DNA from: Pelagomonas calceolata
Taxonomy: Eukaryota
Direction of reading: 5' to 3'
NCBI GenBank assembly: GCA_918797485.1
Contig: CAKKNE010000001.1
Coordinates: 4,526,001-4,590,000, forward strand
Length of the DNA: 64,000 nucleotides
Part shown: positions 1,651-57,967 of the stretch, piece by piece
Numbering within the stretch: position 1 is the first letter of the stretch
Layout: each line of letters opens with the position of its first letter
The notes under the pieces: generated by a model
What the model saw: only the letters and a program-made list of their open reading frames with translations
What the model was told of the DNA's origin: nothing
Database searches by the model: none
Made by a program: the position numbers and the translations under genes

Positions 1651-1672
1651 GCTAGCGTCGTAAGATACTAGC
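1651..1672. promoter_or_regulatory. Conserved intergenic CTAG-pair motif
   Basis: gctagcgtcgtaagatactagc between divergent LHC and JAMM genes. Confidence 0.6.
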
Positions 1673-1819
1673 GCCAAGCAAGCAAACTCGGTCCAGCGCG
1701 GTGCTGAGGGCGAGAGCGTGAGGAGAAGCGGCCATTTGTCTCTGCCTGACGCGCACACTCGGCTGCAGCGGACAAGAGCTGAAAGGATCGTTGCGAGACG
1801 CCAGCCGACGCACCGCACC

Positions 1820-2680
1820 ATGTCCCTAGCCCACTGCACCCTAGCCAAGGAGTGCGCCTTTTGTGTGGTGGCCCACGCCCTCTCGACGGAGAAGCAGGAG
1901 GTCATGGGCCTGCTGTTTGGGCGGTGGGACGGCCCGCAGGCGTTCATCGAGGAGGCGCATCCTCTCGCCAGGACGGACAGGCGTGCTGACCGCGTCGAGG
2001 TGAAGCCCGAACAGCTCGCGAAGGCGGCCTCGATCGCGGAGAGCCGAGGGTTGAGGATTGTGGGCTGGTATCACTCTCACCCGCACATCACGGCGGCGCC
2101 GTCGCACGTCGACGTGAGGACGCAGCGCGCGTATCAAGTTCTCGATGATCGATTCGTGGGCATCATCGCGGCCTGCTTCCCGGGCGTCGACGGCGCGGCG
2201 GCCGCGCGCGGCGCGCCGGCCGTGACGCTTGCTGCCTTCCAGGCGCGCTCGACCTCGGAACCGGGCGCCTTCGCCGCGCCGCTGGCGCTGCCAGCCAGTC
2301 CGCCGCCGGCGTACGCGACCGTGGAAGCAACTTCGGTACCGGTGACCACGGAAGCGCACGCGGGCCGCGACGTGCCGCTGTCCATCGCGTCGGCGGAGAC
2401 TCCAGGCGCGCTCGCGGCAGCGCTCCGGGGCCTCGCGGCCTTGCAGGACGCTTTACTGGCCGAGGAGGTCGCGGCGCGGCGCGCGGCGGCGCCGGGCGAC
2501 GAGGACGCGGGCGCCTTTTGCGACGCGGTCTTCCGCAAGGCCGCTACGTTACTACGCGCCGACGCGCTCCATCCTCTTATTCACGTCGCCGGCGCGTGGC
2601 GCGGTCACGAGCAGCGGCGCCGCGACGCGGCGCTCGCGGAGCGGGACCGGCTGCTCGCGGAGACGTCGGCGTCGGCGTAA
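1820..2680 (+). CDS. MPN+/JAMM deubiquitinase, BRCC36-like
   Basis: HALSTEKQEVMGLL, DRVEV, VGWYHSHPHITAAPSHVD (JAMM HxH...S..D motif). Confidence 0.88.
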   Translation: MSLAHCTLAKECAFCVVAHALSTEKQEVMGLLFGRWDGPQAFIEEAHPLARTDRRADRVEVKPEQLAKAASIAESRGLRIVGWYHSHPHITAAPSHVDVRTQRAYQVLDDRFVGIIAACFPGVDGAAAARGAPAVTLAAFQARSTSEPGAFAAPLALPASPPPAYATVEATSVPVTTEAHAGRDVPLSIASAETPGALAAALRGLAALQDALLAEEVAARRAAAPGDEDAGAFCDAVFRKAATLLRADALHPLIHVAGAWRGHEQRRRDAALAERDRLLAETSASA

Positions 2681-2984
2681 TTTTTGTGGTTTGTAATTGA
2701 GCTATTCCCTCTAGCACGACCCGAGTGAGTGCGTCACGAGAGCGTACTGTAGAGACTAGACTACAGGAGCTCGAATCCCGCGCGAGTGCGAGGAGCTGCG
2801 AGCGGCGCAGCGTCGCACGTACAGCCAGCGCAGGCGATTATAGATTGCTGCGAGGCATGCGCTGATAGCGCATCGCTGCCGCGAAACCGAATTGCATCGC
2901 TTCGGTGCCATCGACCGCGTCTGGCTCTCTCAGACTGTGCACAGCAAAGACTGCAACAGGGGTGCGCGGCCGCAGCGATCGAAG

Positions 2985-4223
2985 ATGGCAGCCGCCGTCG
3001 CCGCCGCGAACGAGGTCATCTCGTTCTACAGCTACACGCCGATTGCGGACCCGCAAGCGCACGCAGCGTGGCAACGCGAAACTGGAGCGCAGCTCGCGCT
3101 GCACGGCCGCGTCATCGTCGCGACCGAGGGCGTGAGTGGTACGGCGAGCGGTGCTGCTGCCGCGACGCGTGAGTACGTGTCGAAGCTCGAAGCCGCGCTC
3201 GGAATTGCGCTCGATGTGAAGCGCGCGCCGCTCGACACGAACGCGGCACCGTTCCCCGACTTCTACGTCAAGGTCGCGGCCGAGATCGTGAGCACGGGCC
3301 TGCCGTGTACCGTCGACGGGTCGGCGCGCCATGCCTCGCCGGCTGCCTTCCGCGACGCGGCGGCGTCCGGCGACGCGCTCATCCTCGACGTACGAAATGG
3401 GTTTGAGCACGACGTCGGCCACTTTGCGGGCGCGGAACGCGCGCCGATCCGCACGATGCAGGAGTGGAAGGCGTACGTGGACGCGTCGGACGTGGTGGGG
3501 CGGAGCCGGGGACGGCCCGTACTGATGTACTGCACGGGCGGCGTGCGCTGCGAGAAAGCGAGCGCCTACCTGCGGTCGCGGGGCGTTGGCGACGTGCAGC
3601 AGCTCGACGGTGGGATTCACCGGTTTCTCGAGGCGTTCCCTGACGGTGTCGACGCGGCGTCCGTCTGACACCATCCGTTCGTCGTGAGTCCGTCGGACGC
3701 CGTCCACGCGTCGTGACGCGTTTCGGTCGCAGGTGGCGGCGTCTGGAGGGGTCGCAATTTCCTGTTCGATAACCGCGAAGCCGAGAACTACAAAGACGGG
3801 GCGTCGAACGTGGTAGGTAGTTGCGGCGATTGTGGAAGGCGTTGGGGCGCGCACGACGGCCGCAACGTGTGTTCGGTCTGCGAGACGCTGTGCCTCGTCT
3901 GCAGGGACTGCCGCGAGACGCGGCACGAGCACTACTGCCCGGAGCACGAGGACCTGCGCGGCGCCTACTGCTGGTTCCTCGACGCCTGCGATGCCGCGGC
4001 GATCGACAAGCAGGCCGACGCGCTCCGGGCGGCGCTGGACGCGCCACGCGCTCGAGGGTCCGTGAACCGGCGGCGCTCGCTCCGGAAGCAGCTCGACCGC
4101 GTCGCGACGCGGAAAGCGGCGCTCGAGGCGGGCGCTGATATCTACGTAGGCCCGCCGCGCTGTCGCTCGTGCGGATCCGTGGAGTGCGAGGGCCAGTGCT
4201 GGGGCTTCTGGAAAAAAGCCTAG
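2985..4223 (+). CDS. TrhO/UPF0176-family rhodanese-domain protein with C-terminal Cys-rich region; exons 2985-3645 and 3733-4223
   Basis: GRVIVATEGVSGT, LDVRNGFEHDVGHF, MYCTGGVRCEKAS, LDGGIHRF; splicing gives the continuation DGGGVWRGRNFLFDNR. Confidence 0.88.
3646..3732 (+). mobile_element. 87-nt GT-AG intron, introner-like
   Basis: Needed to bypass the stop at 3666-3668; its 5' end gtgtcgacgcggcgtcc is nearly identical to that of the 34236 intron (gtttcgacgcggcgtcc). Confidence 0.75.
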
Positions 4224-4233
4224 GTTGTTGTTG

Positions 4234-4911
4234 TTAGTTCTCACCCCTCCGCTTCGCAGTCGGTTGCTCGGACGCGCGGACGTACATCCTCCCCTGCGCG
4301 GCCCGGATGCACAGCTGCCACAGCACGAGTCCCGCGGCGATGCGGAGCGAATATTCATCAGCAATGTCTGGTCGCTCCTGGTAGAGCCAGTCGACAGCGA
4401 CGATTGTGCATGCGAACAAGACGTTGTTGATCTGTTTCCAGTAGCCGCGGTAGAACTTCGACGCCGATTCCGCGAAGGTCCGTGGCGGCGCCGCTTCGTA
4501 GTCTTCAGGCACCAGCTGTTCTCCGGCGGCCGCCAGGATCGTGGCGCATCCCCTGTCATCCGCAACGTCTGTCCACAGCGTGACCCCCGTGCCAGGACTC
4601 TTCACGGCCACGCCCGCACGTCTGGCGTCTATGTTGGGCCCCCGGCCGCAAGGTCCCATGCACGGCCGTGCGCGCAGCTTTACGTCTAAACCATGCTCGT
4701 CCTTCAGAGCTTTGAATCGGCGCAGCGTCTCGCGTGATCCGTCTTCGAGGCAGTCGCGGCCCGTGCATACGTATATTTCAACCGGTGGCGCTTCGCTCGT
4801 CGTCGATGGCGTCGATGGCTGCGGCTGCACAGGGAGCTGCTGCTGTAGCGCCGATACGGATGCAATAACGGGGCTGAGCGCCCACATCAATGCTCGCATG
4901 GCTGCAGGCAT
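4234..4911 (-). CDS. Thioredoxin-like [2Fe-2S] ferredoxin-domain membrane protein, probably plastid-targeted
   Basis: IYVCTGRDC...CMGPCGRGPN Cys pattern; N-terminal signal-like segment; two C-terminal hydrophobic helices. Confidence 0.75.
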   Translation of the reverse strand: MPAAMRALMWALSPVIASVSALQQQLPVQPQPSTPSTTSEAPPVEIYVCTGRDCLEDGSRETLRRFKALKDEHGLDVKLRARPCMGPCGRGPNIDARRAGVAVKSPGTGVTLWTDVADDRGCATILAAAGEQLVPEDYEAAPPRTFAESASKFYRGYWKQINNVLFACTIVAVDWLYQERPDIADEYSLRIAAGLVLWQLCIRAAQGRMYVRASEQPTAKRRGEN

Positions 4912-4981
4912 AAATCACGGCGGCCAGCGAGCACGATTGAGGTGCAAATCGTGCCGGTTTTCGAGCGCGCCGCCATCGCGC

Positions 4982-5006
4982 GCTAGCGGCCTGTAAGACA
5001 CTAGCA
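4982..5006. promoter_or_regulatory. Conserved intergenic CTAG-pair motif
   Basis: gctagcggcctgtaagacactagca, 70 nt upstream of the minus-strand ferredoxin-like gene. Confidence 0.65.
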
Positions 5007-5640
5007 AGCAAATTCGGAACACGTATGCAGCCGTTTGAGTATCCTTCCGTTCGCTAATGGTCCAAAGAGATCGATGGGACACGTACTGGGGGCCGAAAAA
5101 GGCAGTTTTTTAATTCGCGGCCGAGGGCGCCCTACGGGTCTATAACGGCCGCGCCGGTTTAATCCTGTCAATCCCTGCCAAACAGGTGTCCCTGGGGTCG
5201 CCTAGGGTCAGTACTATACACGGTTAGTCGCCTACACCGCATGCGCCGCCGCTTCAATCATTTTTAGTCGATTTCTCTCAGCAGTCCACGGAGGTTTAAC
5301 AACTTATAGCTATGGTTTGCTTCCAGGGCTCTCGGGGAGCACTAGACTGTCGCATCGATGGCGTATGCGGCGCGGGCGACAACCCACCACCAGACCTACC
5401 CCAGAGGGCGCCCGGGGGCCGACCTGCATCCGAAAAAAGTAAATGATTTGGACCCGATGGTGCCCCGTCCCCGTAAAAAACGTCAATTACCCGAGGCCCC
5501 CCAGTAGTCGCCGTAGCGGTCTCGTCGGACCCAATACTACCCCACCGATAGTCAACTACAAGTATATGCCATCTACACCACGAGAAGGGTACTTTGGGCC
5601 GACCACGCTCGGGACGTGAACATCTTGATCTGGACCTCGG

Positions 5641-6300
5641 GCAAGTCAGTCGGTCATGAAACAAATGATCGCATTATGGTCCATGGTAATGGTACACGCG
5701 CTGATGGTCGCAGGTCCAGTCATTTTGCCTATCTTCGTGGGATCGTGGGGCCGCAAGGCCAACGAGGCGCGGGAGCATTTGGCAATAAGAAATCAAATGT
5801 AGGACACGCTCAGGCCAATTAGCTGGCCCGTCCCACCAAAAAAGCGCCTGAAACGCAAATTTATTTTATAACTCACCGGTCTGGGGCCTTTCCGGTGCCC
5901 CGCGTACGTACCGTCGTCCGCGGAGAACGAGCAAGTCGGTCGATTGTGAATAGAACAACGGCTTTATGGTCCATCTGGATGGTGGCGTCGCTGATACTCG
6001 CAGGTTCAGGTTTGTGGATCATCTTTGGGTAAACGCGTGGGACCGAAGTCGCCGAATCCCGAGGCTCTAATGGGATATCTAACATAGCTCATCCCCGCCC
6101 AGGCGGCCTAGATGGACTCTACCACCAACAAACGGAAGGAAACGAACATAAACTCGGGAGTTGTCTAGTAGAACTCTTCTCCCGCCCTCCGAGCGCGGGC
6201 CGTCGGCTCCGGTTCCGTCGAACTTGTATGAAAACTGGGCTGGAGTTGATATATTGTCCCATCTGGACGGTAGATGGCGGCGTCAATCGCTGGTCTACTT
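5641..6300 (-). pseudogene. Decayed tandem coding repeat, unit ~288-290 bp, in a gene-free lower-GC island
   Basis: 5641-5719 and 5931-6009 align without gaps at about 55/79 nt; minus-strand translations PATISACTITMDHNAIICFMTD*LA vs PASISDATIQMDHKAVVLFTIDRLA; weaker third copy near 6230-6300. Confidence 0.55.
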
Positions 6301-7292
6301 TGGCAAGCCGTAAGACTCATCAGCGAATGTCGCGGGCGGTGCCTTCCGGGAGGCGCGAGTGTATGTTCCCGGGCCGCTACTCTTAAATATTTGGTCTCAG
6401 CGAACGACTAGGATGCAATCTGAATTTGGGTCATTCTTTTGACGCTATCGACGCGTATCTTTGAATTTGCTAGTGTGTCGACATACGCTAGATATTATTT
6501 GCCGCAAAGCACGTGAAGGCTTACAGATCTTGCACCTCACGACCGGAAATAAGCTGTGTTGCTCTTTCGCGATCTCCTCGATAGACACACACGTGGAGAA
6601 CAAGAAAAGAAGCAAAAACCCCTGCGAGAGGAGACAAAAAGCAAAGCAGGCCAGGAGTGGGTCACAGCTGGGTTTTCGCCTCCAAACAAAGCAAAAGGTG
6701 GGCGCACGCACTTAGCGCGCGCATCAAGGCGCCAAACGGCAAAGTGAGGTAGGCGACTTTGCCGTGCGCACCAAACGCCTCCACCGCCCGCCGGCCTTAG
6801 GGTCGGTGGGCTGACCGCCGCCCCGCCACTCGCAGGAGGTGACGGCGGCGCCACTGCTCTTCGGGGCAGCAAGATTGTCGCGCTCGTCGCGATGAGGACT
6901 TACACGTCCGCTCGGTGATCGCCGCCGCCGCGCCTCGTATGAGGGGACGATGGCGTCACCGCCGCGCAAGGAAACGCTGACGCTCGAGTCTCGGGCGCCG
7001 ACTGCTCTTCGACGCGGCAAAAGAAGATAAGCCGCTCTCTCGATGCGATGATCCATCCCCTTGCTATTTGCTCGTTACCCCCCCGACATCCCCAAAGACC
7101 CCCCGACGAAATTGAGCTCGCCTGGGACGCCTTGTCGAACACGTATGCCGCTCTTTGACGGCGCATGCCGTCTAGCACTTGAAGCCACCTCTCCCGCCGA
7201 ACGCGCGGTGCCCTGCTCACGACACATAAAGTGGAGTAAAGTGTGAATCTAAACTTCGGCGAGCTAGTCTAGAATAACATTATGCACACCTA

Positions 7293-8360
7293 CTACCCGT
7301 CGCTCACGCGAATCTGCACCTTCAAACACCCCCGCTCGCCCGCGCGCTTCACGGCCTCGGGCGCCTTCGCCAGCGGAAACGTCGAGTCGATGAGCGGCGT
7401 CAGGTCCAGCGTCTTCAGCAGCTCGAGCGCCGGCCCGAAGGGCCCGCACCGCGAGCCCTGGACGCGCAGCTCGTCGACGACGAAGGGGGCCGTGTTAAAG
7501 TCCGTGCCCGCGGCGCACGTCGACTTGAGCACCAACGTGCCCTCCGTCCGGCACAGCTGCCGGCTCAGGTCCAAACCCGCGGGCGAGCCCGTCGCGTCGA
7601 CGACCACGTCGTAGGCGTAGGCATTTTTCGGTAGTGCGGTGTCAGACAACGCGGTGTCGCATTGCGACTCCGACGAAAGGAGCTTCATTTTCGATACGTG
7701 GCGGCCGTAGAGGACGGGGCGAGGCGACCCGGTCCGCTGGGCGTGCCGGCCCAGGACTTCCCCAATGAGCAGCCCGAGCTTGCCGTCTCCCACAATTGCT
7801 ATTTTCGTCTTCGCGGGCACCAGATTCTGCTCGACGACGCGGAAGGCCGCGGCCAGCGGCTCGGCGAAGGCCGCGTTCTCCGTTTTTACACAATCGGGCA
7901 CGACGTGCAAGTTCCTTGCTGGTAACGTGAGTCGTTCTTGGTACGTGCCGTTCTTGTTCAGGATGCCCAGCACGGTCCGCTTCGGGCAGTGGTTCCGCGC
8001 CCGAGGGCCGCCTCGTTCGCACAACATACACGTGTTGCACGCTAAATTGATCTCGCCCACGACGCGTTTGCCGACCAAATGCTGGTGGCTGTGCGGCGCG
8101 CTCTCGCACAGCCCCACGAACTCGTGGCCCACGACGCCCTCGAAGCCCATGTAGCCCTTCATGATCTCCAGGTCCGTATTGCAGACGCCGGCAATGAGCA
8201 CTTTCACGTAGCACTCGTCGGGCCCGGGGATCGGCACCTTGATCCTCTCGACCTTCGCGTCGGCGCCCCGCACGACGAAGCCGTCCTGCTTCATGGGCGG
8301 CAACAATGCCTTCAAAGCCTCGAGGTCGAGCGTGTTTACATTGGTTTGAAACTCGGACAT
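7293..8360 (-). CDS. Zinc-dependent medium-chain alcohol dehydrogenase (MDR family)
   Basis: GVCNTD, GHEFVG, structural Zn CxxCxxC...C, GDGKLG nucleotide-binding loop. Confidence 0.93.
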   Translation of the reverse strand: MSEFQTNVNTLDLEALKALLPPMKQDGFVVRGADAKVERIKVPIPGPDECYVKVLIAGVCNTDLEIMKGYMGFEGVVGHEFVGLCESAPHSHQHLVGKRVVGEINLACNTCMLCERGGPRARNHCPKRTVLGILNKNGTYQERLTLPARNLHVVPDCVKTENAAFAEPLAAAFRVVEQNLVPAKTKIAIVGDGKLGLLIGEVLGRHAQRTGSPRPVLYGRHVSKMKLLSSESQCDTALSDTALPKNAYAYDVVVDATGSPAGLDLSRQLCRTEGTLVLKSTCAAGTDFNTAPFVVDELRVQGSRCGPFGPALELLKTLDLTPLIDSTFPLAKAPEAVKRAGERGCLKVQIRVSDG

Positions 8361-8604
8361 GGTGTCGTGTGGTTAAGACAGCACGTCGCAGCGATGGCGT
8401 GGAACGTAGACCCGCGCTCGAACGAATTGATGCTGGCGGTGCGTGCCGCGGCGATGGCTTGTGTCGGGTGGGGCTGTGGGGTGCCCTCTAGCGATGCGTT
8501 TCGACCTGCTCGCTGCAGCGCAGCTACAAGGCAACTTTAAACGATGTGCTTGCTGCGTATTTTGCCTTGTTTAGCTGCCGCTGCGATTTTCCCCGGGTCC
8601 GTCT

Positions 8605-8628
8605 TGCTAGTGTGTTACTGCCGCTAGC
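8605..8628. promoter_or_regulatory. Conserved intergenic CTAG-pair motif
   Basis: tgctagtgtgttactgccgctagc in a divergent gap. Confidence 0.65.
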
Positions 8629-8703
8629 CACGAGCTCAGTTTTGCCACGAGAACCGGCCAACCGACACGCCACGGCTCTAGTAAAGTCGCTCAGTTATCA
8701 AAC

Positions 8704-9441
8704 ATGATGCCTTGCGTCGCGCGTGGGCGAAGATTGCCATCGCTCATGCTAATTGCTGGCTGCCTGGGCTTCACAGAGCTGGCGCACGTGCTGGTGCAGA
8801 CGCCGCAGCGATCGCGCACCCATGCGTCAATACGACCACGGCTAGCCATTGCCTCCAAACCGCAGGGATCGCACACTGTAGTCCTAACAGGACCACGGCA
8901 CGCAGTCGTCCGCGCCGCCGCCGCCGGCGAGATGGGCTTCCAGCTCCAGGCGGCGCCGCTGCTGTCGACGGCGCTCGTCTTCCTGAGCTGGGGCTGGCTG
9001 CAGTGGAAGTCGAGCGCCTACAATTCGATCGGCGACGAGCTCGACGCGGAGCTGGAGACCCTACAGAAACTTACCGTCGAGACCCTGACGAGCGGAGATG
9101 CCGCGGCCGTCGAACGACGAGAAGCCGCGCAGCGCGCCGTCGACGCGACCCGTGCGCGGATGGAGGAGGCGCGAACGATCCGCGGCCCGGGAGGGCTCGT
9201 CGCGCGGATACGACTCCCACAGCGCGGCGCGGCTAAGTCGTTCGAGAAAGGCGCGGCGGCGCCGGCCAAGCGTCGCGAAGAACCCGAGGAAGAGGTCGCG
9301 TCGCGAGTCGAGACGCTCAAGATCTTTGCCCTCGGCGGCGTCGCCCTGCTGATGGTGCCAATTTTCTTTCTGTCAATCGCCGACCCTATGGCGCCGCCCT
9401 CTCCCGAGCTCGCTGCGCGGCTCGCGAGCGAACTTTCGTAA
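8704..9441 (+). CDS. Hypothetical two-TM membrane protein; start codon uncertain
   Basis: Long ORF with GC3-rich codon use from ~8900 and two hydrophobic segments; no family recognised. Confidence 0.6.
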   Translation: MMPCVARGRRLPSLMLIAGCLGFTELAHVLVQTPQRSRTHASIRPRLAIASKPQGSHTVVLTGPRHAVVRAAAAGEMGFQLQAAPLLSTALVFLSWGWLQWKSSAYNSIGDELDAELETLQKLTVETLTSGDAAAVERREAAQRAVDATRARMEEARTIRGPGGLVARIRLPQRGAAKSFEKGAAAPAKRREEPEEEVASRVETLKIFALGGVALLMVPIFFLSIADPMAPPSPELAARLASELS

Positions 9442-9468
9442 CTACTGTATTCTGTGATATACTACAAG

Positions 9469-9973: not shown

Positions 9974-9997
9974 TGCTAGTGCCTTACCGACGCTAGC
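9974..9997. promoter_or_regulatory. Conserved intergenic CTAG-pair motif
   Basis: tgctagtgccttaccgacgctagc between NDUFA1 and the SNM1-type gene. Confidence 0.65.
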
Positions 9998-44934: not shown

Positions 44935-45005
44935 GCACTCGCGTACTAGGTATTAGATGGCAAATCGATGTTTAATAGACAATAGGGGAGAGAACGGGCG
45001 CAAGC

Positions 45006-48260: not shown

Positions 48261-50156
48261 TTAAGAGGCGTCGCCCTTGGCGGCCGCAACGAGGCGTCCC
48301 ATCCCCGCCTCAAGCGCCGCCTGGGCCTTCCGCCGATCATCCAGTTCCTTCGCGGCGCCCTTGCCCATCTGCGCCGAAAAGGCGCCGGCGACGCGCTTGG
48401 ACCGCATCTCCGTCTTGCCGCCCCGCGAAAATAGGGCCGTGTCCGCCGCGCCCTGGCCGTCCCAGTAGCGCGGCCCGAGTCTATCAGCTCTTGATATAAC
48501 CTGGCTATGTTTCAAAGAGAAGTCGTCGGTGCCCGCCGCCGCCGCGACGGCCGCTGCCAACCCGCGTAAGAAGTCGACGTCATTCCTGTAGGTCGCGTCG
48601 GCGTGCTCGTCCGGAGCTGGCGGTTCCATATGCGCCCGCAGCCCGACGGCCGCGGCGTCGGCCGCCGCCGCGGCATCTAAATCCCGATTCTTCGCGACCA
48701 CCACCACGCCCATGGGCACCCTTCGAAAGGCCCCAGTGCCGAGATCCGTCTTCTCCACGTAGATCGCCACGTCCACACTTTTGCTGGAGAAGACGTGCGC
48801 CTCGAGCGCGGCGTCGCATTTCCCCACAAAACCCACGTGCCAGCCTAACGTCGAGCGCATGTCCGCGGCGAGGGTCGGAGTTAACCCAGCTAAGACTTTT
48901 GCTGCTGATGATCCATCACCAGTAGCTAAAACGCGTCCCGCAGCATTCCCCGTGCCGACGGCGTGCGGCGTGCCCGTCTCCACCGCAATCACAGCGCCGC
49001 GCTGGCCGTGTGTTGTGGTGTTCACTAACGCTGATGTTGTGGTTTCCAGCCGGCAGGGCGTCGCCGCCGCGTCGCCGCACGCTAATACTGATGCTCCTGC
49101 AGACAGCTCCTCGTTGACAAAGATGGGCCGCCGTCGCGTCGCGTCGTCGAGTCTCGTCGCTTTCACGACTTCCAAAGCGGTGGAACCTCGAGGAGCGCTC
49201 CGCGCGTCGCGCGCCGACACTTGTACTTGTTGTACATGTTCACCACCGGCCACAACCACCAAGTCTGCTGAACATCTCGACGTCCTCATGGCGTCGTCGG
49301 CCCGCGCGAGATAGACGGCATGCGAGGCCTTGCGATTGTCTTCGTTCGGACCGACGTAGCGGATTTGGTGCAATGCAATGACCGTGACGCCCCTTTTTTC
49401 GAGACGTTTTCGGAGCTTCTTGCCCAGGTCCTTCGGTAACCGAGCGCCGATGGGCGTCGCCTCGGGAAATACGAGAGATGCGGACTCCCCGGCCGTCTCC
49501 GCCGGCGCCGCCCGCGCGACGGCCGCCGCGAGCGCGACGGCCTGCCAGGAACCGCCCACGACACATACTTTACCACCTCTTTTCGCAACCGAAAAGGCGT
49601 CCCGCACGGCCGCGGCGTCCGCCGCCTCGCCGTGGCCCAGACATCTCACGGATTCGACACATAGTTCATCTACAAAACCGGGCGGCGGGACCGCGGCGGC
49701 CGCGCCGGTGGCCACGAGGCATTTCTTCGCGTAGGAGTACTCGTCGCCGTGCGTCGTGCGCACTTGCCTCAGTAAAGGGTTCAGCGACTCCGCCCGCGCT
49801 CGCACGCAATCGATAATGTCCGACCCGACCTCCGCACTGAGCGCCTCGCACCGTCGCACCGCGAACGCGTCCGACTCGAGCACGAGACACCGGTGTCCTC
49901 TATCAGCGTGCTTCGCGACCGCCTCGACGGCCGCCGTGCCGCTCACGCCGCAGCCAATCACTATCGAGTCGTAGCGGTTCGGGTCCGCGAGCGTGTGGCG
50001 GCGCGGGCCCTCAAATTTATCGTCGTCATCTTCCTCTAGACCGTCGTCGCACTGCAGCGGTGCTTGTTGCGCCCTCGCTTGCGTATACGATGCGGTGAGG
50101 ACCGTGCACGCGGCGGCTGCCGGTGCGCGGCGTAATAGGTGCTGCAGGAGGAGCAT
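48261..50156 (-). CDS. FAD-dependent pyridine-nucleotide oxidoreductase, AIF-like, divergent
   Basis: IVIGCGVSG, Y.KCLVATG, VCVVGGSW, ACGDAA; presequence-like N-terminus. Confidence 0.72.
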   Translation of the reverse strand: MLLLQHLLRRAPAAAACTVLTASYTQARAQQAPLQCDDGLEEDDDDKFEGPRRHTLADPNRYDSIVIGCGVSGTAAVEAVAKHADRGHRCLVLESDAFAVRRCEALSAEVGSDIIDCVRARAESLNPLLRQVRTTHGDEYSYAKKCLVATGAAAAVPPPGFVDELCVESVRCLGHGEAADAAAVRDAFSVAKRGGKVCVVGGSWQAVALAAAVARAAPAETAGESASLVFPEATPIGARLPKDLGKKLRKRLEKRGVTVIALHQIRYVGPNEDNRKASHAVYLARADDAMRTSRCSADLVVVAGGEHVQQVQVSARDARSAPRGSTALEVVKATRLDDATRRRPIFVNEELSAGASVLACGDAAATPCRLETTTSALVNTTTHGQRGAVIAVETGTPHAVGTGNAAGRVLATGDGSSAAKVLAGLTPTLAADMRSTLGWHVGFVGKCDAALEAHVFSSKSVDVAIYVEKTDLGTGAFRRVPMGVVVVAKNRDLDAAAAADAAAVGLRAHMEPPAPDEHADATYRNDVDFLRGLAAAVAAAAGTDDFSLKHSQVISRADRLGPRYWDGQGAADTALFSRGGKTEMRSKRVAGAFSAQMGKGAAKELDDRRKAQAALEAGMGRLVAAAKGDAS

Positions 50157-50411
50157 GCTTGCTGCTCTCCCTTTTGTGGCACTGCTGGTGCACCAAACGT
50201 TGCGCAAATATCAGCACCGGCGCAGCTATGACCGATGTGGCTACTGATGAGCCCTGCGCTTGCTGCGCCGGTGTTGCGTCTGTTTTTTGCGGCACTGCTA
50301 CTGCATGCGTCGAGTCGGGCTGAGCGCAATGATCCGTCCAAGGATCGCCAGGGAGGAGGTTCAGGCCTCTGCGGGTGCCAAAGCACTCCTAAAAAGCGCT
50401 GCTTGCTTGTC

Positions 50412-50435
50412 TGCTAGTGTCTCACAGGCCGCTAG
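50412..50435. promoter_or_regulatory. Conserved intergenic CTAG-pair motif
   Basis: tgctagtgtctcacaggccgctag in a divergent gap. Confidence 0.62.
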
Positions 50436-50576
50436 GTCTAGCTTTGCTCCGAACGTAAAGCAAGCGCATTTATGCCTTAGGGACCCAGCAGACAATTATT
50501 TTGGACCACAGGCCAAGTCCCGCAGCCGCCGCGGCAAGTTTCGCAGCGATATCGGGTGCTGTGCACGGCACAAACA

Positions 50577-52004
50577 ATGATGCTGGCCGCACGGGCAGCA
50601 CAGCGCGGCGCACCGGTGATTTTTGCTGCGCGAGCAGCGTCTACAACGCGGAGCCTGCGATGCCCAACGGTGCAGCGGCTTGCGGTCATCGCCGTGCCGA
50701 CGCGTCGCGGCCTCGCGACGACCTCCGCGAACAACCTCGTGCCGGCGGCTCTGAGAGGGCTGGACTACGTCGGCACCGTGGCGTTCGCCGCGTCTGGAAC
50801 GATGGTCGCGGGACACGCGGGCATGGACATCCTCGGCTGCACGATGGTGGGCACGATCACGTCGTTGGGAGGTGGTACGATTCGGGACCTGCTGCTGGGT
50901 CGCACGCCGGTCTTTTGGTTTAAGGAGATCGAGTACCTCTTGCTCTGCGTCGGCACCGCTTTGATGGCATTCTACGCGCACGACAAACTCGAGGGACCAG
51001 TAGCCGAGGAGGCGCTGTGGTGGGGCGACACTTTAGGTATCGGCGCCTTTTCGGTAGTCGGAGCGCAAGCGGCCGCTAGCGTGGGCATGGGTCCGTTGGT
51101 GGTCCCTATTTGTGGCATGTTCACGGCGACGTGCGGCGGCCTGGTCCGAGACGTGCTCTGCCGCCGGCCACCGAAGTTACTCTACTCAGCGGCGCAAGAC
51201 TCGCCGGCGGCGGCGGGCACGCTCTACGCGCCCGCAGCGTTGAGCGGCGCGAGCGCCTACGCCTTCCTCCACTTTGTGGGCGCCGGTGCGCCGCTCGCCA
51301 TCGCGCTGGGCTGCGCGACGACCGTCGGCGTCCGGACCTACGGCTACGCGCGGAACGTCAAGCTCCCGACCTACAGCGACGTGCCCGCGGGGCCCGCGCC
51401 GCGCCTCGCCGCGAACGATGCGCATCTCGTCGTGACGGCCTGGGGCCCCGACGCGACGGGCCACGTCGCCACGCTCGCAAGGGTATTGGCTGACGCGCGG
51501 GCGAACATTTCCGCCTCGAAGATTGCGACGATTGGTGATGATATTGTCGTCATGCTCGTCGTAAGCGCGCCGCGCGGGGCAAGAGCTGGTCTGGTATCTG
51601 CGGCGACGACGGCGGGCCGAGAACGCGGCCTCAAGGTGGACTGTCGCGACGTCACGCCGTCCCACGGCACGCCCCCTGCGGCAAAGGTCGCGGGGCGGGT
51701 GGCACTCCAAGGACCGGACTCGCCGGGCCTCGTCTCAAATGTTGCCGCTCTGTTATCGAAGCATGGCCTCAACATCTCCTCGCTCGACACGCGCGTCGTC
51801 GGCGTGGCGCCCGAGGGTCTCCAGCGGCGTGTGACCGAGGCGGCGCGGTCCCTCGACGCAAGAGACGCCGCGACGGACCTCTTTTGTCTCGAGGCGATCG
51901 TCACGGCGCCCGAAAAGCCGGACGCAGCGGCGTTAAAACGAGACGTGGCGGCTCTACGAAAACGGTGTCGCCTCGACGTGCTCGACGTCGTCATGGAAGA
52001 ATAG
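50577..52004 (+). CDS. UPF0126/TRIC (glycine transporter family) membrane protein fused to a GcvR-like tandem ACT domain
   Basis: LDYVGTVAFAASG, MDILG...GGGTIRDLLLG..PVFW, DTLGIGAF, TATCGGLVRDVL; then HLVVTAWGPDATGHV...ANI..S and GPDSPGLVSNVAALL..HGLNISSL. Confidence 0.85.
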   Translation: MMLAARAAQRGAPVIFAARAASTTRSLRCPTVQRLAVIAVPTRRGLATTSANNLVPAALRGLDYVGTVAFAASGTMVAGHAGMDILGCTMVGTITSLGGGTIRDLLLGRTPVFWFKEIEYLLLCVGTALMAFYAHDKLEGPVAEEALWWGDTLGIGAFSVVGAQAAASVGMGPLVVPICGMFTATCGGLVRDVLCRRPPKLLYSAAQDSPAAAGTLYAPAALSGASAYAFLHFVGAGAPLAIALGCATTVGVRTYGYARNVKLPTYSDVPAGPAPRLAANDAHLVVTAWGPDATGHVATLARVLADARANISASKIATIGDDIVVMLVVSAPRGARAGLVSAATTAGRERGLKVDCRDVTPSHGTPPAAKVAGRVALQGPDSPGLVSNVAALLSKHGLNISSLDTRVVGVAPEGLQRRVTEAARSLDARDAATDLFCLEAIVTAPEKPDAAALKRDVAALRKRCRLDVLDVVMEE

Positions 52005-52024
52005 TAGTAAGTCTAACACATACG

Positions 52025-53233
52025 TTAATCTCCAAGAGCAGCAAAAGCCCCCCCTGAGCGCGACGCCTTGCCGCGCGACGCCGTCCGCGCGCCGCCGCGG
52101 CTTTTTGATTGCGACGAGACCGTCGCCCAGCCGCCCGTCGAGGCTTTCTTTTGAGGCGCCGCGGACTTGCGCCGCAGGTCGGACAGGTGCTTGCGGAGCG
52201 GCGCGAGGCGCGCCGCGAGCTCGGCGTCGGTCTCGTACCAGAGCCGCGACGCCTCCTCCAACGTTGAAATACGCTCCTCTAAATCAGGCGCTTCTCCCAG
52301 TTTGGACACTTCTGCAACGGATAGGAGCGCTCCACCGCGCTTCTCCAGCGCGGCGAGCGGCGCGAGTTTTGTTTGTAAAGCTTTGATCGCCGCCGTGTGC
52401 TCGATTTTGGGAGGCTTGTAATCCAGAACGGACCGCTTCGAGAGCGCCTCGCGGTTCTCCTCGATGCGCTTCTTGGCCTTGTCGTTCGGCGCGCTCTCGG
52501 CGCGCTCGTCCATCTGTTCTAAACAAAGCGTCTTTTCTGTTGTAGTGAGCTGGCCATTTTGCACCATCTCCATCAAGGACTTTTGCAGGAACTTGAGCTT
52601 GCCGTCAAGGTCATCGCCGCTTCCGAGCTCGTACAAAGCTTGCTCCGCGTCATCGAGCGCCTCCCGATTCATCAGCTTCGAGTCGATCTGAGTGAACTGC
52701 GCCCGGACCTCGCGCAGCTTCTCTTGGAGCCGCTTCTTGCAGGACCACGTCGGGCACCGCTTCGCGACCGTTCGCTCGAAGGTCTTCATCTCCGCCGCAA
52801 CCAACAAATGCTCCCGCGACAGCCGCGCCGGTTCGTCAACCGTCTCGTCTTCATTTGAGGCGTCTACAACCTTCTTCGCGCAGCGGGGGAAGACGTGCAC
52901 GAAAATGAGGTTGCGGCCCGTGTCGTGCTGCGTCTTGAAGGACCCCGCACTATCAAAATCGCAAGATGCCGACTTGTTGTCCTCGTAATCGATCGCCTTG
53001 AGCGCGGCCACGATCCATTTTTGTAAAGATGCGTCGTACTTCTGCCGGTTCGCCTTGCCGGCGCCGACCACGAACGTGACGCGGACCATCTCGTCCCGGT
53101 CCGAGAACGGCGTCGAGAAGGCGTCCGTGATCAATCTGCCGGCGTCGTATGCCGAGCTGATCGATCCTAGATCGAACTCGTCGGACTCCGTGATGCTCCG
53201 CACTTTGCCGGCGAGACCGCTGAAGGAGGCCAT
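52025..53233 (-). CDS. Hypothetical protein with globular N-domain and coiled-coil C-half
   Basis: 402-aa ORF with typical codon usage; no family recognised. Confidence 0.72.
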   Translation of the reverse strand: MASFSGLAGKVRSITESDEFDLGSISSAYDAGRLITDAFSTPFSDRDEMVRVTFVVGAGKANRQKYDASLQKWIVAALKAIDYEDNKSASCDFDSAGSFKTQHDTGRNLIFVHVFPRCAKKVVDASNEDETVDEPARLSREHLLVAAEMKTFERTVAKRCPTWSCKKRLQEKLREVRAQFTQIDSKLMNREALDDAEQALYELGSGDDLDGKLKFLQKSLMEMVQNGQLTTTEKTLCLEQMDERAESAPNDKAKKRIEENREALSKRSVLDYKPPKIEHTAAIKALQTKLAPLAALEKRGGALLSVAEVSKLGEAPDLEERISTLEEASRLWYETDAELAARLAPLRKHLSDLRRKSAAPQKKASTGGWATVSSQSKSRGGARTASRGKASRSGGAFAALGD

Positions 53234-53442
53234 GGCCTCTTAATGTGCGGCGGCGGCGTCTAGCGACTGGTGTGGCGTGGTGGGCCGCCAGCAGTGTTGC
53301 AGTGTGCAGGCCGGCAGCTAATGCAGCGCGATGGCAAGATTGGTGTTGCACAGCAAAGAGGAGACCACAGGTGTGTCTCGCACAACGCAGCTTCGGCGTA
53401 CGAGCAGACTGTGACCCACGACGGTTCGACGACTTTTTTGCT

Positions 53443-53467
53443 TGCTAGTGTTTTACCGAACGCTAGC
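53443..53467. promoter_or_regulatory. Conserved intergenic CTAG-pair motif
   Basis: tgctagtgttttaccgaacgctagc in a divergent gap. Confidence 0.65.
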
Positions 53468-53558
53468 CTCGCATAACACTCCGCACAGCCATACGCCATT
53501 TCCAGCAGGCAGAGAGACAAGCAGACTCTGCGCACAACTTAGAATCACGCCAGCGATC

Positions 53559-55184
53559 ATGTCCACGAGCGATGCGGACGCCGCTCGCTTGGCCCAGCTT
53601 CTAAACTCGGATTCGGACTCGGACACCGCAGGGGAAGGAAACACGGACGCAGACGTGCTGCGCACATCAGAGCTGCTGAATCGGCCGTCCGACGCCGCCG
53701 AGGACGACGACGAGGACGAATTGGACCACAAACCGGCGCCGCCAGCGCCGCAGCCGTCAGTACCGGAGCCGCCAGCGCCAGAATTGCCGGCTCCGACGCC
53801 GCCCGCGCCCGAGCCGGCCTCGACGCCAGCGCCGGCACCACCCGCACCGCCGCCAGCGCCGGAGCCGTCCTCGACGCCAGCCGCAGCGCCGTCACCGCCT
53901 GCAACGCAACAACCGCGCCGCGCGTCATCAAGGGTCCTCGACCAGATCAGCTCGAAGCTCGCCGAACTGAAGGGAGACGCGCCGCCCGTCGACGACGAGA
54001 CGACGGCGCGCCGGTTTTGTGAGAGGACGGCGAAGGCCTTCGACGAAGACCGGACGCCGGAGCTGGCCATCGAGTGCGTCTGGGAGAACCAGTCAAGGGA
54101 CGACCAATCCTTAACCAACCTCGCATCGGCGGCGCGCGCGACGCTGACGCGGCATGCCATTGAGAGGCGGCCGCCGGGACCCTGGGGCCGCGCCGAGGCG
54201 CCGCGGGCCGGTATTATAAGGAGGCTGCAGCCGTTGCGGAGGCGGCCCTTCGAGGGCCGCCTGGCGCCGCTCTTCGCGGAAAGCGGGCCGCCGGACGTTG
54301 ATGGATTGCCGGATCTGTCCTGGAGGTGGCTCTCGCCCTGGCAGGTCGACGGCCGCGTCCACGGCACCGATCGAGGCGTCTCTGATATCGAAGAGGTCGG
54401 CGCGCCGGATGCCTGGTTGTATGCGCCGAAGTGGCCCAGTGATGATATGACTGGGTATAGTTATGACGAGAATGATTCAAGAGTGCGATGTCGACGGTGG
54501 GTGCGGCCGCGCGAGCGGCAGACCTGCCAGAGTTTAGTAAAGCAGCTCCTAGCCAAAAGACCCGCGACGCGGGTCGCGGCGTTACTTCGCGAGGCGAAGA
54601 GCCCTGAGGTCGACCTCGCGATGTTGGCGGCGTCGCTGGTCGAAGTGCCCGTCGTGGCGGCGCCGAGGCCGCCGCCCGAACCGGAACAAAAGCACGCGCG
54701 CGGTGTTACGGTTGACTACGTCTGGGAGAACCAGCGCTGGATTAGAGGATGGGCGCCCTGCGTGGGCCTGCGGAAGGCGCCCTTCGACGGCGCGTCGCGA
54801 CCGGCGCTCGCGGCGCTGTTCAAGCGCCACGGCGGCCCGCCGCCGCTCGAAGCCGAGCTCGCGCCCGAGGAGTCGGGCCTACCCCTCGACGACTTAAATG
54901 GGAGGGCGTCGACGTGGCGCTGGCTCGGGCCCTGGGTGCTTGATAGCACGTCGTTCGGCGCCGAGCGCGTGTCGAGCGACGGGAGTGGCGAGGGCGGCTG
55001 GATTTATCGGTTTGACTGGTCGCGCGACGGCTTGGGGTATAGCAGCGCGATGACGAAGCGGACGTTCGTGAGGTGTCGCCGGTGGGTCCGGCCGCGCGAG
55101 CCCGCGGACGTCGCGAGCCCTAGCCCCCCTGTTGAGGAGGACGTGGTGCCGGCCGCCGGTGACAAGTTGAACTTCTTCTCCTAA
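53559..55184 (+). CDS. Protein with two dysferlin (DysF/Pex24p-like) domains
   Basis: Two copies of VWENQ...W.W..PW..D...W.Y...W...VRCRRWVRPRE; Pro-rich N-terminus. Confidence 0.82.
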   Translation: MSTSDADAARLAQLLNSDSDSDTAGEGNTDADVLRTSELLNRPSDAAEDDDEDELDHKPAPPAPQPSVPEPPAPELPAPTPPAPEPASTPAPAPPAPPPAPEPSSTPAAAPSPPATQQPRRASSRVLDQISSKLAELKGDAPPVDDETTARRFCERTAKAFDEDRTPELAIECVWENQSRDDQSLTNLASAARATLTRHAIERRPPGPWGRAEAPRAGIIRRLQPLRRRPFEGRLAPLFAESGPPDVDGLPDLSWRWLSPWQVDGRVHGTDRGVSDIEEVGAPDAWLYAPKWPSDDMTGYSYDENDSRVRCRRWVRPRERQTCQSLVKQLLAKRPATRVAALLREAKSPEVDLAMLAASLVEVPVVAAPRPPPEPEQKHARGVTVDYVWENQRWIRGWAPCVGLRKAPFDGASRPALAALFKRHGGPPPLEAELAPEESGLPLDDLNGRASTWRWLGPWVLDSTSFGAERVSSDGSGEGGWIYRFDWSRDGLGYSSAMTKRTFVRCRRWVRPREPADVASPSPPVEEDVVPAAGDKLNFFS

Positions 55185-55358
55185 GTTGTTGTCCTGTTTT
55201 ATCGTTCGCTCCCGGGGCCCGGAGAAGCGCCACAGGTTTTGCACAGTTGCTTTGCTTAGAGCTAGGCCACCTAGCCACCAAGCCGCCGCCGCGATGCCTG
55301 CTTGACCGAACGGCTGCCGCGCTCCCGGCCCACACAGTTAACACACACACAGATTACC

Positions 55359-55739
55359 TCACGAGGCCCCCCGCGACGACCACCACCGCCGCAGCGACCA
55401 CTCGGCCCTTGGTGGTCGCGGCGCCGTCGGCGTCGCCACGGTCTGCCCCGCGTCCGTCCACGCGGGCCGCTCCTTCAGCTCCCAGACGTGCGGCGCTTCT
55501 TTTTCGAGCGCCTCGCCCGCGGCCGCCGCCTCGGCCCGCCGCCGCGCCGCGCCGCCGCGCATGCAGGCCCACATGTCCGCGGCGCGCTGCTGGCAGTCGT
55601 CGAAGGTGCCGTCGCGGTAGACGACCTCGAACTGGTGCTTGGGCGTCGCGCAACTATACAACGCGTCGAGCTCGAGCCAGCAGCTCGTGCGCTCCTCTTG
55701 CGGTTTCGGTGGTGGTGTGGCGGCGGCGTCGTCGGACAT
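55359..55739 (-). CDS. DUF3128 / Emi1 / C22orf39-like protein
   Basis: SC...D....C...HQF..VYR.G..DDC.......W.CM...HVWELKE. Confidence 0.72.
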   Translation of the reverse strand: MSDDAAATPPPKPQEERTSCWLELDALYSCATPKHQFEVVYRDGTFDDCQQRAADMWACMRGGAARRRAEAAAAGEALEKEAPHVWELKERPAWTDAGQTVATPTAPRPPRAEWSLRRWWSSRGAS

Positions 55740-55931
55740 TTGTGATGCGTGCGCGCGCTCGCTTTTGTGAGCACAGTGTAGCAGTGGGGGCCCCTGCTGC
55801 TCCCCTGCGTCGGCTGGACGAGCTCCAGCGAAGCGTAGTGCCGTGTGCAATCTATGCGTCAAGGAAATCACTCGTACGAGCCCTTGTCAACTCGTACGGA
55901 CGCCGCCGCGCAAGCGCGGCTTACAAATCGT

Positions 55932-55955
55932 GCTAGCGCCTGTAAGACACTAGCA
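55932..55955. promoter_or_regulatory. Conserved intergenic CTAG-pair motif
   Basis: gctagcgcctgtaagacactagca in a divergent gap. Confidence 0.65.
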
Positions 55956-56091
55956 AACGCTAGCTGGAGCAAAAACAAGGGCGCAGAGCACAGCTCGCCA
56001 GAACACGCAGACTCGAAGATCTGGGCAGTGTGGCTTACCAGGGCTTATCAGGGCCTGCACAGGTTGCCAGCACAGCAGCTGATTGGCATCG

Positions 56092-56799
56092 ATGGCGGAC
56101 AGCAGCAGCGGCGACGGCGCAGAAGAATCTAGAGAAGAGCTAAATCAGCGGCTGCACGACGCCGCCGAGGCGGGCGACGTCGTAAAACTACGCTTAGCGA
56201 TCGCCGCGGGTGCCGACGTTGACGCCTTAACGAAAAGGGGCCATCTCAAGATGACGGCCCTTTGCTCCGTCGTCCGTGCCACTCGGGTGAAACATAATCG
56301 AGCCGTGAAAGGGAGGACGGCCTGCGTTCGGGCACTCCTCGATGCGGGGGCGTCGGCGTCCGCGGCCGTAGTATTCTTCGACTCTGGTGACAGTTCGGAC
56401 TCTGAGGAGGAACAGTTCGGATGGACGGCGATGCACGATGCCGTATGTTCAGGACTTAACACAATCTGTAGACTGCTATTGGACGCCGGTGCGGCTTTGA
56501 ACACGCGCGATTTTGATGATACAACGCCGCTTCAATATGCCGCAGGAAACGGGCACCACAGAACTGCCGTTCTGTTGCTCTCGCGAGGGGCCGTAGCAGA
56601 GGAGGGGAAGTACGATCAATTTCTCCAATTTTCTCCAGGGTACCTCTCGAGAATCGAGCGAGCGGGCAGCTTCGCAAACTACCAGAAGCAGCAGTGCAAA
56701 AAACTCACGGCGATGCTCGCGCCGAAGATGGACCACTTGCTGCCTCCGGAGCTCGTGTCCCACGTCATCACGTTCTGGGGCCATCTCGGGTGGAAGTGA
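56092..56799 (+). CDS. Ankyrin-repeat protein
   Basis: LHDAAEAG, GWTAMHDA...LLLDAGA, TPLQYAAGNGH...LLLSRGA. Confidence 0.85.
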   Translation: MADSSSGDGAEESREELNQRLHDAAEAGDVVKLRLAIAAGADVDALTKRGHLKMTALCSVVRATRVKHNRAVKGRTACVRALLDAGASASAAVVFFDSGDSSDSEEEQFGWTAMHDAVCSGLNTICRLLLDAGAALNTRDFDDTTPLQYAAGNGHHRTAVLLLSRGAVAEEGKYDQFLQFSPGYLSRIERAGSFANYQKQQCKKLTAMLAPKMDHLLPPELVSHVITFWGHLGWK

Positions 56800-56975
56800 C
56801 GCGGCCGCGGCGCGCGTAAGGTGACGCCGTCGCCGCGGCCGCGCGTTGTGCCCGCGCGAGACAGCATCGCGAGACATTGCCGCCCGCGCAGTGTGTAGAG
56901 TGTGTAAAAACTAAGCAATTTAAAATGCGGCGGGCAGGTCCGAAGGGGACCCACGCGCGTCCTCCACCAGGACCT

Positions 56976-57689
56976 CTAGCCCGAGTCCATGATCGTGCGC
57001 CCGAACTCGGCGACGACGATGCCGTTGTACTGCGGGAACTTCTCCACGAGCTTGGCGCCGCGCTTGTCCTTGACGCGCTCCGTGTACGTCTTCATGCCGA
57101 TGTTCTTCATCTGGTCCCGGGAATACTGGAGGCAGAGGAGGAAGAAGGAGGCCTGGCCGAGCGGCGGCTCCATCCAGTTCCAGCTCCACGAGCCGACCTC
57201 GAGCCACGTCTCGAGGTTCTTCGCGTCCTCGACGTCCATGGTCACGTACTGCTCGTTGAACCACAATACGGTATGTAGGTCGAAGCACATGGGGATCGAG
57301 CCGAAGCCCGCGACGAGCGCCGCGGCGATGCCCACGCGGTACGGTAAACGAGACATGGCCAATCCAGCCTTCGCGGCCTGCTCGATCTCGCCCACCTTTC
57401 CTTCTGCTTCCACATGATCGACACCGTCGACCTTCATCACGTCCCGGACCATGCGCTCCCGGATGGCCTGGTCGTCGCCGTGCGCGCTGAGCATGAGGAG
57501 CACGTGATTCGAGTAGTCGGCGTAGGTCGTGGGCATGCGCTCGTCGTCGATTTCGGTCTTGTGCGCGAGGGCGAAGTTGCGCGTCTGCGTCGCGACGACT
57601 GGCAGCTTCTGCGCCGCGAGGCGGCTCTGGGTGCCGCGGGCGGCCAGCGAGCGGGCGCCCAGCGCGCGAAGGGATCTTGCTGCCAGCAT
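56976..57689 (-). CDS. Hypothetical mitochondrial membrane protein
   Basis: Presequence MLAARSLRALGARSL; two hydrophobic segments; Trp-rich ETWLEVGSWSWNWMEP. Confidence 0.75.
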   Translation of the reverse strand: MLAARSLRALGARSLAARGTQSRLAAQKLPVVATQTRNFALAHKTEIDDERMPTTYADYSNHVLLMLSAHGDDQAIRERMVRDVMKVDGVDHVEAEGKVGEIEQAAKAGLAMSRLPYRVGIAAALVAGFGSIPMCFDLHTVLWFNEQYVTMDVEDAKNLETWLEVGSWSWNWMEPPLGQASFFLLCLQYSRDQMKNIGMKTYTERVKDKRGAKLVEKFPQYNGIVVAEFGRTIMDSG

Positions 57690-57967
57690 CGTGTGTTACG
57701 TCTTCGCTCCTTCTTCGAAGCAGCTAGGGGCTCGCGCGCAGGCTTTTAGCGGCAGCGCGATTCCGCTCTGTTAACGAGCTAGCCACACATTCACACTAGC
57801 TCTGCTCGCTCCCGGAACGCCGCTGTGAGACATGAATATAATGCACAGGAATTTAGTATTTTTTTTTGGTGTTTCCAGTCAGAGCCGGCTTTTTGTTGTG
57901 TTTCGGCGGCCGTCGATGACGACGGCGGCGGCGTTCTTCTTTGTACACAAGGCGTCACGGGCGCGGC

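Follow-up and report, generated by a model that had tools for sequence, protein, structure and literature searches.

More than half of the promoter-bearing gaps between genes in a 64,000-nt stretch of the Pelagomonas calceolata genome (contig CAKKNE010000001.1, positions 4,526,001 to 4,590,000; hereafter the window, whose own numbering is used throughout) carry a bipartite motif about 26 bp long, with the consensus (GC)TT-GCTAGTGTCTTAC-N3-4-CGCTAG-CT. The motif is real and widespread in Pelagomonas, and is apparently undescribed in print. We favour, at a probability of roughly 0.6, the reading that a single general regulatory factor binds the motif, where it would open a promoter shared by the genes on either side and position the nucleosomes. 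This reading was reached from sequence and from the placement of RNA 5' ends, and parts of it had been proposed in an earlier note on this DNA.

The motif recurs in the window above chance

The motif can be written as an imperfect palindrome, with half-sites of the form GCTAGYGKC, an asymmetric TTAC centre and a spacer of 2-5 nt; the arms are almost invariant and the spacer drifts. The word CTAG is not enriched overall in the window (117 observed versus 122 expected), and among the 36 pairs of CTAG words no more than 60 nt apart, 17 are spaced by 16-18 nt from start to start. The exact consensus occurs six times, versus none in 100 shuffles, and the long arm with up to two mismatches occurs 19 times, versus 2.6 expected. 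Moreover, a two-block gapped weight matrix identified 16 sites of at least 13 bits, when 0.3 would be expected from 20 Markov simulations; at a threshold of 7 bits, chance alone would give 10.4. (Note that the matrix was trained on metagenome copies fetched with the window consensus and is thus not fully independent of the window.)

The 16 sites comprise 13 strong copies together with those that the earlier note had placed at 6468, 33231 and 38881. Each of the 18 positions named in that note contains the sequence it described, and 17 of them have two CTAG words, the exception being 43033, where the second arm is broken (CTTTAG). The gap between the two words had been given as 13-15 nt and is in fact 12-14 nt (10 nt at 38881). 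As for the copies that had been called loose, 6468, 33231 and 38881 score at least 13 bits, whereas 28442 and 57778 do not rise above chance level. The copies are listed below by coordinates, strand, matrix score and setting, together with the RNA 5' ends near them.

1650-1677, minus strand, 25.7 bits: in the gap from which a light-harvesting gene and a JAB-domain gene diverge; RNA 5' ends at 1709 (contig, +47 nt) and 1516/1517 (reads, -146 nt)
4981-5010, minus strand, 37.2 bits: copy of the consensus form on the margin of a repeat island; a start codon lies 83 nt away
6464-6493, plus strand, 22.7 bits: variant copy with the GTGTGTCGA arm, within the gene-free repeat island
8601-8629, plus strand, 29.6 bits: divergent gap
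9970-9998, plus strand, 28.5 bits: divergent gap between genes for an MWFE subunit and a DNA-repair metallo-beta-lactamase
16793-16822, plus strand, 33.8 bits: divergent gap between a glycosyltransferase gene and Dcp2; Dcp2 5' end placed at 16841 by way of a spliced contig whose first exon is 107 nt long
23498-23525, plus strand, 34.3 bits: divergent gap
29142-29169, minus strand, 29.2 bits: tandem gap ahead of an FKBP gene
33230-33257, minus strand, 21.9 bits: variant copy with the GTGTGTCGA arm, divergent gap
38877-38902, plus strand, 15.6 bits: short-spacer copy, tandem gap
40515-40544, plus strand, 28.3 bits: tandem gap; RNA 5' ends at 40484 (reads) and 40493 (contig)
41470-41499, minus strand, 27.4 bits: tandem gap, crossed by an RNA contig
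43029-43058, plus strand, 26.6 bits: copy with the broken second arm, divergent gap; RNA contigs enter or cross it
50408-50437, plus strand, 31.5 bits: divergent gap; contig 5' ends at 50449/50456 and 50288/50296
53439-53468, plus strand, 32.1 bits: divergent gap; RNA 5' ends at 53409 (reads), 53431/53439 and 53474/53511 (contigs)
55931-55959, minus strand, 32.8 bits: divergent gap; RNA 5' ends at 55891 and 55986/55987 (reads) and 55984 (contig)
2737-2765, minus strand, 9.4 bits (chance level): candidate decayed copy, absent from the earlier list; contig 5' end at 2808, 57 nt away
28440-28468, minus strand, 7.1 bits (chance level): loose copy of the earlier note, two CTAG words
57777-57805, minus strand, 8.7 bits (chance level): loose copy of the earlier note, two CTAG words

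In the variant copies (6464-6493 and 33230-33257) the long arm reads GTGTGTCGA in place of GTGTCTTAC; these are possibly a subclass, or the site of a second factor.

Placement of the motif relative to genes

The window is gene-dense, with about 64% GC. Forty-four genes were assigned by hand from open reading frames, and the five proteins that were looked up were all found exactly in the protein collection. On this map the motif is present in 10 of 14 divergent gaps, in 5 of 14 tandem gaps and in none of 15 convergent gaps; 15 of the 28 promoter-bearing gaps therefore contain it and 25 of the 42 gene starts are covered, and these figures correct the earlier statement that it marks most promoter regions, 13 gaps lacking it. 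None of the 16 copies falls within the 51,272 bp of coding spans, in agreement with what had been noted before. (Its absence between convergent genes had been noted too; this absence is not significant and is uninformative in the window alone, because the convergent gaps sum to only 1,203 bp.) The nearest start codon is 69-297 nt away for 15 of the 16 copies, 6468 in the island being the exception.

All 10 divergent gaps that contain the motif hold one copy common to both genes, as had been noted before. The neighbouring genes are functionally unrelated, as had also been said: Pfam matches were obtained for 24 of the 44 window open reading frames scanned, and they are of diverse, unrelated kinds. 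(The Dcp2 of the window has its nearest named homologues in pelagophytes; Aureococcus, 68%.)

Copies beyond the window face gene starts with either arm

A metagenome scan returned at least 124 stretches, corresponding to at least 122 loci, with at least 130 matches and at least 127 distinct copies; the density of the motif genome-wide is judged from the window and these loci. When 10 proteins encoded beside metagenome copies were queried, nine were found, and the 90% clusters of three of these nine include Pelagomonas calceolata entries. The 127 distinct copies among the matches listed have unrelated flanks, and information outside the searched core is limited to five bases before it (GCTT-like) and two after it (CT). 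The spacer among these matches is mostly 4 nt (78) or 3 nt (38) long, less often 2 nt (6) or 5 nt (5), and its commonest form is AGGC.

These data bear on the idea that the motif is the relic or end of a dispersed mobile element that favours open promoters, such as a miniature inverted-repeat transposable element, the end of something like a Helitron, or 14 bp inserted between CTAG targets that were duplicated. The inverted arms and two CTAG words would suit such an origin, as would the copy within the repeat island, the copy at its edge and the many Introner elements of the species (PMC9481584). However, the 127 copies have no flank information beyond -5/+2, and no target-site duplication was found in 155 copies across 336 tests of boundary and length (best z 2.1). 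In addition, the position of the motif is kept in diverged homologous promoters despite changed spacers, and near-invariant arms stand against a drifting spacer. The idea fails because there are no shared flanks or target duplications, and we give it hardly any credence; the transposon end with target-site duplications that the earlier note had raised against its own proposal was thus not found.

A codon-model gene finder was applied to the loci of at least 1 kb. (It recovers 41 of the 44 window genes, though it was trained on them.) Among the 107 matches listed for these loci, predicted coding sequence contains 0 of 82 exact and 4 of 25 weaker copies. Both sides could be classed for 56 of the copies listed, of which 35 lie between two gene starts, 19 between a start and an end, and two, in a single gap, between two ends. 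Gene starts are divided equally between the two arms (62 versus 62), at median distances of 192 and 189.5 nt, and the one-sided contexts are split 14 versus 8 (p=0.29). No start codon lies less than 60 nt from the motif in any of 43 divergent cases (p=5e-7 under uniform placement). Homologous promoters, of which there are four sets, also keep the motif in register while differing in spacer and flanks (L011/L096; L012/L032; L044/L079; L048/L073/L121).

The distance to the start codon invites comparison with the site of an ordinary upstream activator or of a regulon, one that an abundant transcription factor would bind without any special part in the opening of chromatin or the setting of starts. 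The median of about 190 nt matches the CCAAT box of Phytophthora, which, according to excerpts of a promoter survey, is found some 192 nt ahead of the start codon in either orientation (PMC3520976), and promoters without the motif would also be expected of such a site. Neighbouring genes nevertheless have no common function, divergent gaps hold a single common copy (10 of 10 in the window), and the flanks have a symmetric architecture at fixed distances (described below). We consider an ordinary activator site distinctly improbable.

No orthologs of window genes were found among the metagenome loci, only paralogous MYND/TPR genes, and viral contigs gave no motif matches. Four matches in prokaryote genomes, one per genome, are at about the chance or misbinning rate and were excluded from the occurrences. 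The contigs concerned (L123-L126) carry the match at a contig end or amid eukaryote-like genes, and two have identical flanks; they are probably misbinned or chimeric.

Two further sequences were seen in motif-bearing loci. A second short motif, GCGGGAGCCCT, is present in six of them (L006, L012, L030, L031, L071 and L089), lying shortly past the CGCTAG arm in L012 and L089, as a looser form of it does in L062, L112 and L115; it is a possible partner-factor site. A dispersed repeat of about 80 nt lies between gene ends and the motif in L030, L055, L059, L071, L104 and L105, with a partial copy at window position 18337.

Many RNA 5' ends lie about 45 nt from the motif, on both sides

For regions 38001-58000 and 1-20000 of the window, RNA 5' ends were taken from three runs of stranded polyA reads and, drawn from two studies, three runs of RNA-type contigs. 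(Note that these come from RNA-seq, not from capped starts, and that the ends quoted are those among the ends listed.) Pile-ups of read 5' ends at 40484, 53409, 55891 and 55986/7 are 47, 46, 52 and 43 nt from the motif centres; they occur on both sides and past both arms (-47, -46, -52, +43). Contig 5' ends near motifs are at 40493, 50449/56, 53431/39, 53474/511, 55984, 1709 and 16841 (the last inferred from the spliced contig). Eight of the 13 directions with data have RNA 5' ends 16-56 nt from the motif centre. Moreover, in four of the five divergent promoters with data on both sides the motif lies inside the untranscribed gap, for which the joint chance is 0.0006 with the narrowest ends and about 0.004, calculated by hand, with the widest. 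The even share of gene starts between the arms, RNA 5' ends some 45 nt out both ways, unrelated neighbours and the lack of a transposon signature together support the earlier suggestion of a general, orientation-independent promoter site.

The same ends would be expected of a genuine core-promoter element. Such an element would be recognised by a lineage-specific component of the pre-initiation machinery and would itself fix starts about 45 nt to either side; any effect on chromatin would be secondary. In keeping with this, the read pile-ups are 43-52 nt from the centre on either side, start codons are never within 60 nt, and the flanks show no other position-specific word of TATA or initiator type. 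Known core-promoter elements are directional, however, whereas the motif is free in orientation, both arms facing starts equally. Of the read pile-ups, four are at 43-52 nt and one is at 146 nt. Two 5' ends are at 128-146 nt, about 46% of promoter gaps have no motif, and features of the CpG profile at 155 and 300 nt suggest an effect that extends past the start site. On balance we think a core-promoter element rather unlikely.

Two minor features of the transcripts may be recorded here. Sense and antisense reads overlap over a tubulin-like gene and the broken-arm copy (41564-43262), and the 5' untranslated region of Dcp2 contains a 187-nt GC-AG intron (16948-17134).

The flanks of the motif are mirror-symmetric

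Flank profiles were compiled from 160 copies of at least 20 bits, and 24 flanks of homologous loci were dropped for the detrended test. The results indicate that the flanks are mirror images: the CpG profiles of the two arms correlate with r=0.89, and after detrending with r=0.76, compared to a jitter null with a mean of 0.16 and a maximum of 0.53. Profiles from the window and from the metagenome copies correlate with r=0.52. Closest to the motif, TTTG is over-represented 8-22 nt from its edges (52 versus 15.5 expected), and A/T tracts lie 18-45 nt from its centre, TTTT/AAAA being present in 55/46 of 307 flanks there versus 10/23 at 45-72 nt. Farther out, CpG rises slightly at 95-130 nt (z 4.0 compared with 55-90), falls into a sharp trough at 135-175 nt, where CpA/TpG shows a reciprocal gain, reaches a plateau in one step at 180 nt and peaks near 300 nt (z 3.7-4.6); there is also an apparent rise in ApT at 180-200 nt (observed/expected 1.16). 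The trough is found on gene-start sides (n=143; p=3e-12 for CpG and 8e-10 for the CpA/TpG gain) and is missing on gene-end sides (n=36, p=0.51). Its position is stable in three classes of start-codon distance (observed/expected 0.90, 0.61 and 0.91), which argues that the trough is anchored on the motif rather than on the start codon. The flank symmetry, the A/T tracts and the CpG trough are new here and were not seen in the earlier note.

Loss of CpG with gain of CpA/TpG is the usual signature of methyl-cytosine decay. The published P. calceolata annotation lists a C5-methyltransferase/SNF2 gene (Dnmt5-type architecture), and excerpts of the literature report linker methylation in the pelagophyte Aureococcus (PMC9998398). 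We infer that the flank profile is a trace of chromatin, namely of nucleosomes and linker methylation, and the CpG pattern of the flanks would in this way lend indirect support to the positioning of nucleosomes by the motif, another proposal of the earlier note. Alternatively, the trough could be due to some downstream sequence element instead of chromatin.

The flanks are relevant, too, to the possibility that the motif is a replication-origin mark or a DNA or RNA hairpin. Base skews flip at the motif, which could be folded into a 7-bp stem that includes a T.G wobble. Replication origins, though, are spaced by tens of kb; the motif occurs once per 4 kb (16 per 64 kb) and its CpG trough is on gene-start sides only, both of which disfavour the origin mark that the earlier note had offered as an option. 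The hairpin fails at the stem position that is free to vary, where most copies are mismatched (T.C in 88 of 160, T-A in 46 of 160); furthermore, either strand may face the transcript, and the motif is mostly outside the RNA. An Rfam scan of the window gave no match at gathering score, and a tRNA scan of it was also empty. Both the origin and the hairpin are, in our estimation, very unlikely.

Introns with a palindromic core, CCATCGACGC, occur in the window at 11140-11210, 34250-34420, 3645-3731 and 180-238, and two of them are spliced in the RNA data; they are likely to be the Introner elements of P. calceolata. Within motif flanks, 5 of 23 such cores are 175-195 nt from the motif centre.

A general regulatory factor as the favoured reading

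If the motif is the site of a general regulatory factor, then a dimer, or a protein with two linked recognition modules, would read the imperfect palindrome, its GCTAGYGKC half-sites separated by the spacer of 2-5 nt. (The form of the palindrome makes the dimeric factor of the earlier note plausible, and the candidate factor is likely to be abundant.) Possible candidates for it, in no order of preference, are the Myb-domain and AP2-domain entries of the P. calceolata annotation, at least 42 and at least 17 respectively. The bound factor, together with the A/T tracts, would keep the site poor in nucleosomes, polymerase II would begin at a distance of about 45 nt, on the side or sides where there is a gene, and nucleosomes would be positioned outward from the motif. 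The fixed CpG pattern would then be the mutational trace of positioned nucleosomes and linker methylation.

A number of observations weigh against this reading. Thirteen of the 28 promoter-bearing gaps are without the motif, and strongly expressed genes are among those they serve (46995-47184; 18528). Five of the 13 directions with RNA data do not fit: the 5' end of the light-harvesting gene (1516/7) is 146 nt from the motif centre, contig ends of low depth for the gene to the left of 50424 are at 128-136 nt, and transcripts overrun copy 41470 and the broken-arm copy 43029 (three directions). At another locus, 40-49 polyA reads hold the motif within the RNA. The three runs of raw reads represent one sample, and the evidence from register in homologous promoters is weak in that all members of the sets were selected on the motif. 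As for the flanks, the trough is not significant where it is wholly coding (n=26, p=0.14), long-range nucleosome periodicity was not found at synonymous CpG sites (232 of 300 nulls were as strong), CpG periodicity was not detected beyond about 320 nt, and a 10-bp (rotational) periodicity was not found in the flanks. A 94-nt CpG period (0 of 200 nulls) was dropped when its middle peak failed in a direct contrast (z=-0.5).

The promoters without the motif include a divergent pair with mapped 5' ends (46995/47001 and 47160-84), a second light-harvesting gene, and a strong promoter with 5' ends at 18528/30. Likewise without it are four of the five genes with the deepest RNA coverage in the mapped stretches, at 45006-48154 and 18687-19592. 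There is a hint here of a second class of promoter besides the motif promoters.

A further proposition is that one lineage-specific factor acting on the 26-bp element runs most Pelagomonas genes through one type of two-way promoter, with starts about 45 nt to both sides and with the element as an anchor for nucleosomes and DNA methylation. We put this forward tentatively, as possible but doubtful. If it were true, the phased, linker-methylated chromatin of these picoalgae would have its missing DNA anchor in the motif.

Comparison with known promoter elements

The Abf1 site of budding yeast is, like the motif, bipartite and gapped, and Reb1 sites likewise have flanking A/T tracts; to our knowledge, the motif matches no Reb1, Abf1 or Rap1 site. 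Like the sites of these factors, it is found singly in shared gaps with two-way transcription, has unrelated targets and occurs in either orientation. Unlike them, it is long (about 26 bp), has a spacer that varies between 2 and 5 nt, and covers 25 of 42 gene starts as one motif. In yeast the work is shared out over several factors whose sites are shorter, so that the dominance of a single long site would be unusual. In animals, DRE/DREF, M1BP (Motif 1), NRF1, ZNF143 and BANP exemplify a single sequence-specific factor that marks many TATA-less, often bidirectional promoters and phases nucleosomes; we know of no likeness in sequence between their motifs and the present one, and the lineage is distant. 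According to excerpts of one study, the promoter regions in which Reb1, Abf1 and Rap1 sites sit are depleted of nucleosomes (PMC9481977).

Among stramenopile promoter surveys, the nearest that we found concerns Phytophthora, and its excerpts describe, besides the CCAAT box, an Inr/FPR element in 37% of P. infestans genes, positioned where transcription starts and 81 nt away from the start codon (PMC3520976). As judged from these excerpts, the CCAAT and Inr/FPR elements resemble the Pelagomonas motif in being abundant and general; they differ from it in sequence, are not gapped imperfect palindromes, and are described in text that has no CTAG word (PMC3520976). Linker methylation by Dnmt5 and linker-targeted Introners are reported for Aureococcus and Micromonas in passages of three papers (PMC9998398, PMC5728721, PMC9860276). 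Aureococcus belongs to the same algal class, and phased nucleosomes with linker methylation could leave CpG marks such as those at 135-175 and about 300 nt. The passages concerned name no DNA element that anchors the phasing, and in our data no periodicity was detected beyond 320 nt.

A search of the literature for the literal motif returned one unrelated yeast paper. The words 'motif' and 'promoter' occur zero times in the accessible main text of the P. calceolata genome paper, and in its readable supplements only in the gene annotation table; the text of a pelagophyte pangenome preprint, taken without its supplements, uses neither. No description of the motif or of Pelagomonas promoters was found in the literature searched, subscription papers being outside its scope.

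Pelagomonas is a widespread and abundant picoalga of the open ocean. An element of this length, easy to score and present at more than half of the gene starts in the window, could serve as a direct bait for the factor, as a means of fixing gene starts and binning eukaryotic contigs in ocean metagenomes, and as a compact two-way promoter for algal transformation. It would also offer a test of what anchors the phased, linker-methylated nucleosomes of picoalgae.

Repeats in the window

The gene-free island at 5100-7200 is a dispersed repeat that matches L116 (90%) and L005 (82%); a 22-nt direct repeat is present at 5017 and 7137, and many reads over the island come from differing copies. A short dispersed repeat at 55244-55280, right after a stop codon, contains CTAG words and is not the motif; it attracts many loose-end polyA reads from other loci. 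Finally, an inverted-repeat fragment of a gene of the MYND/RINGv/TPR family lies at 44580-44940, with strand-switch reads.

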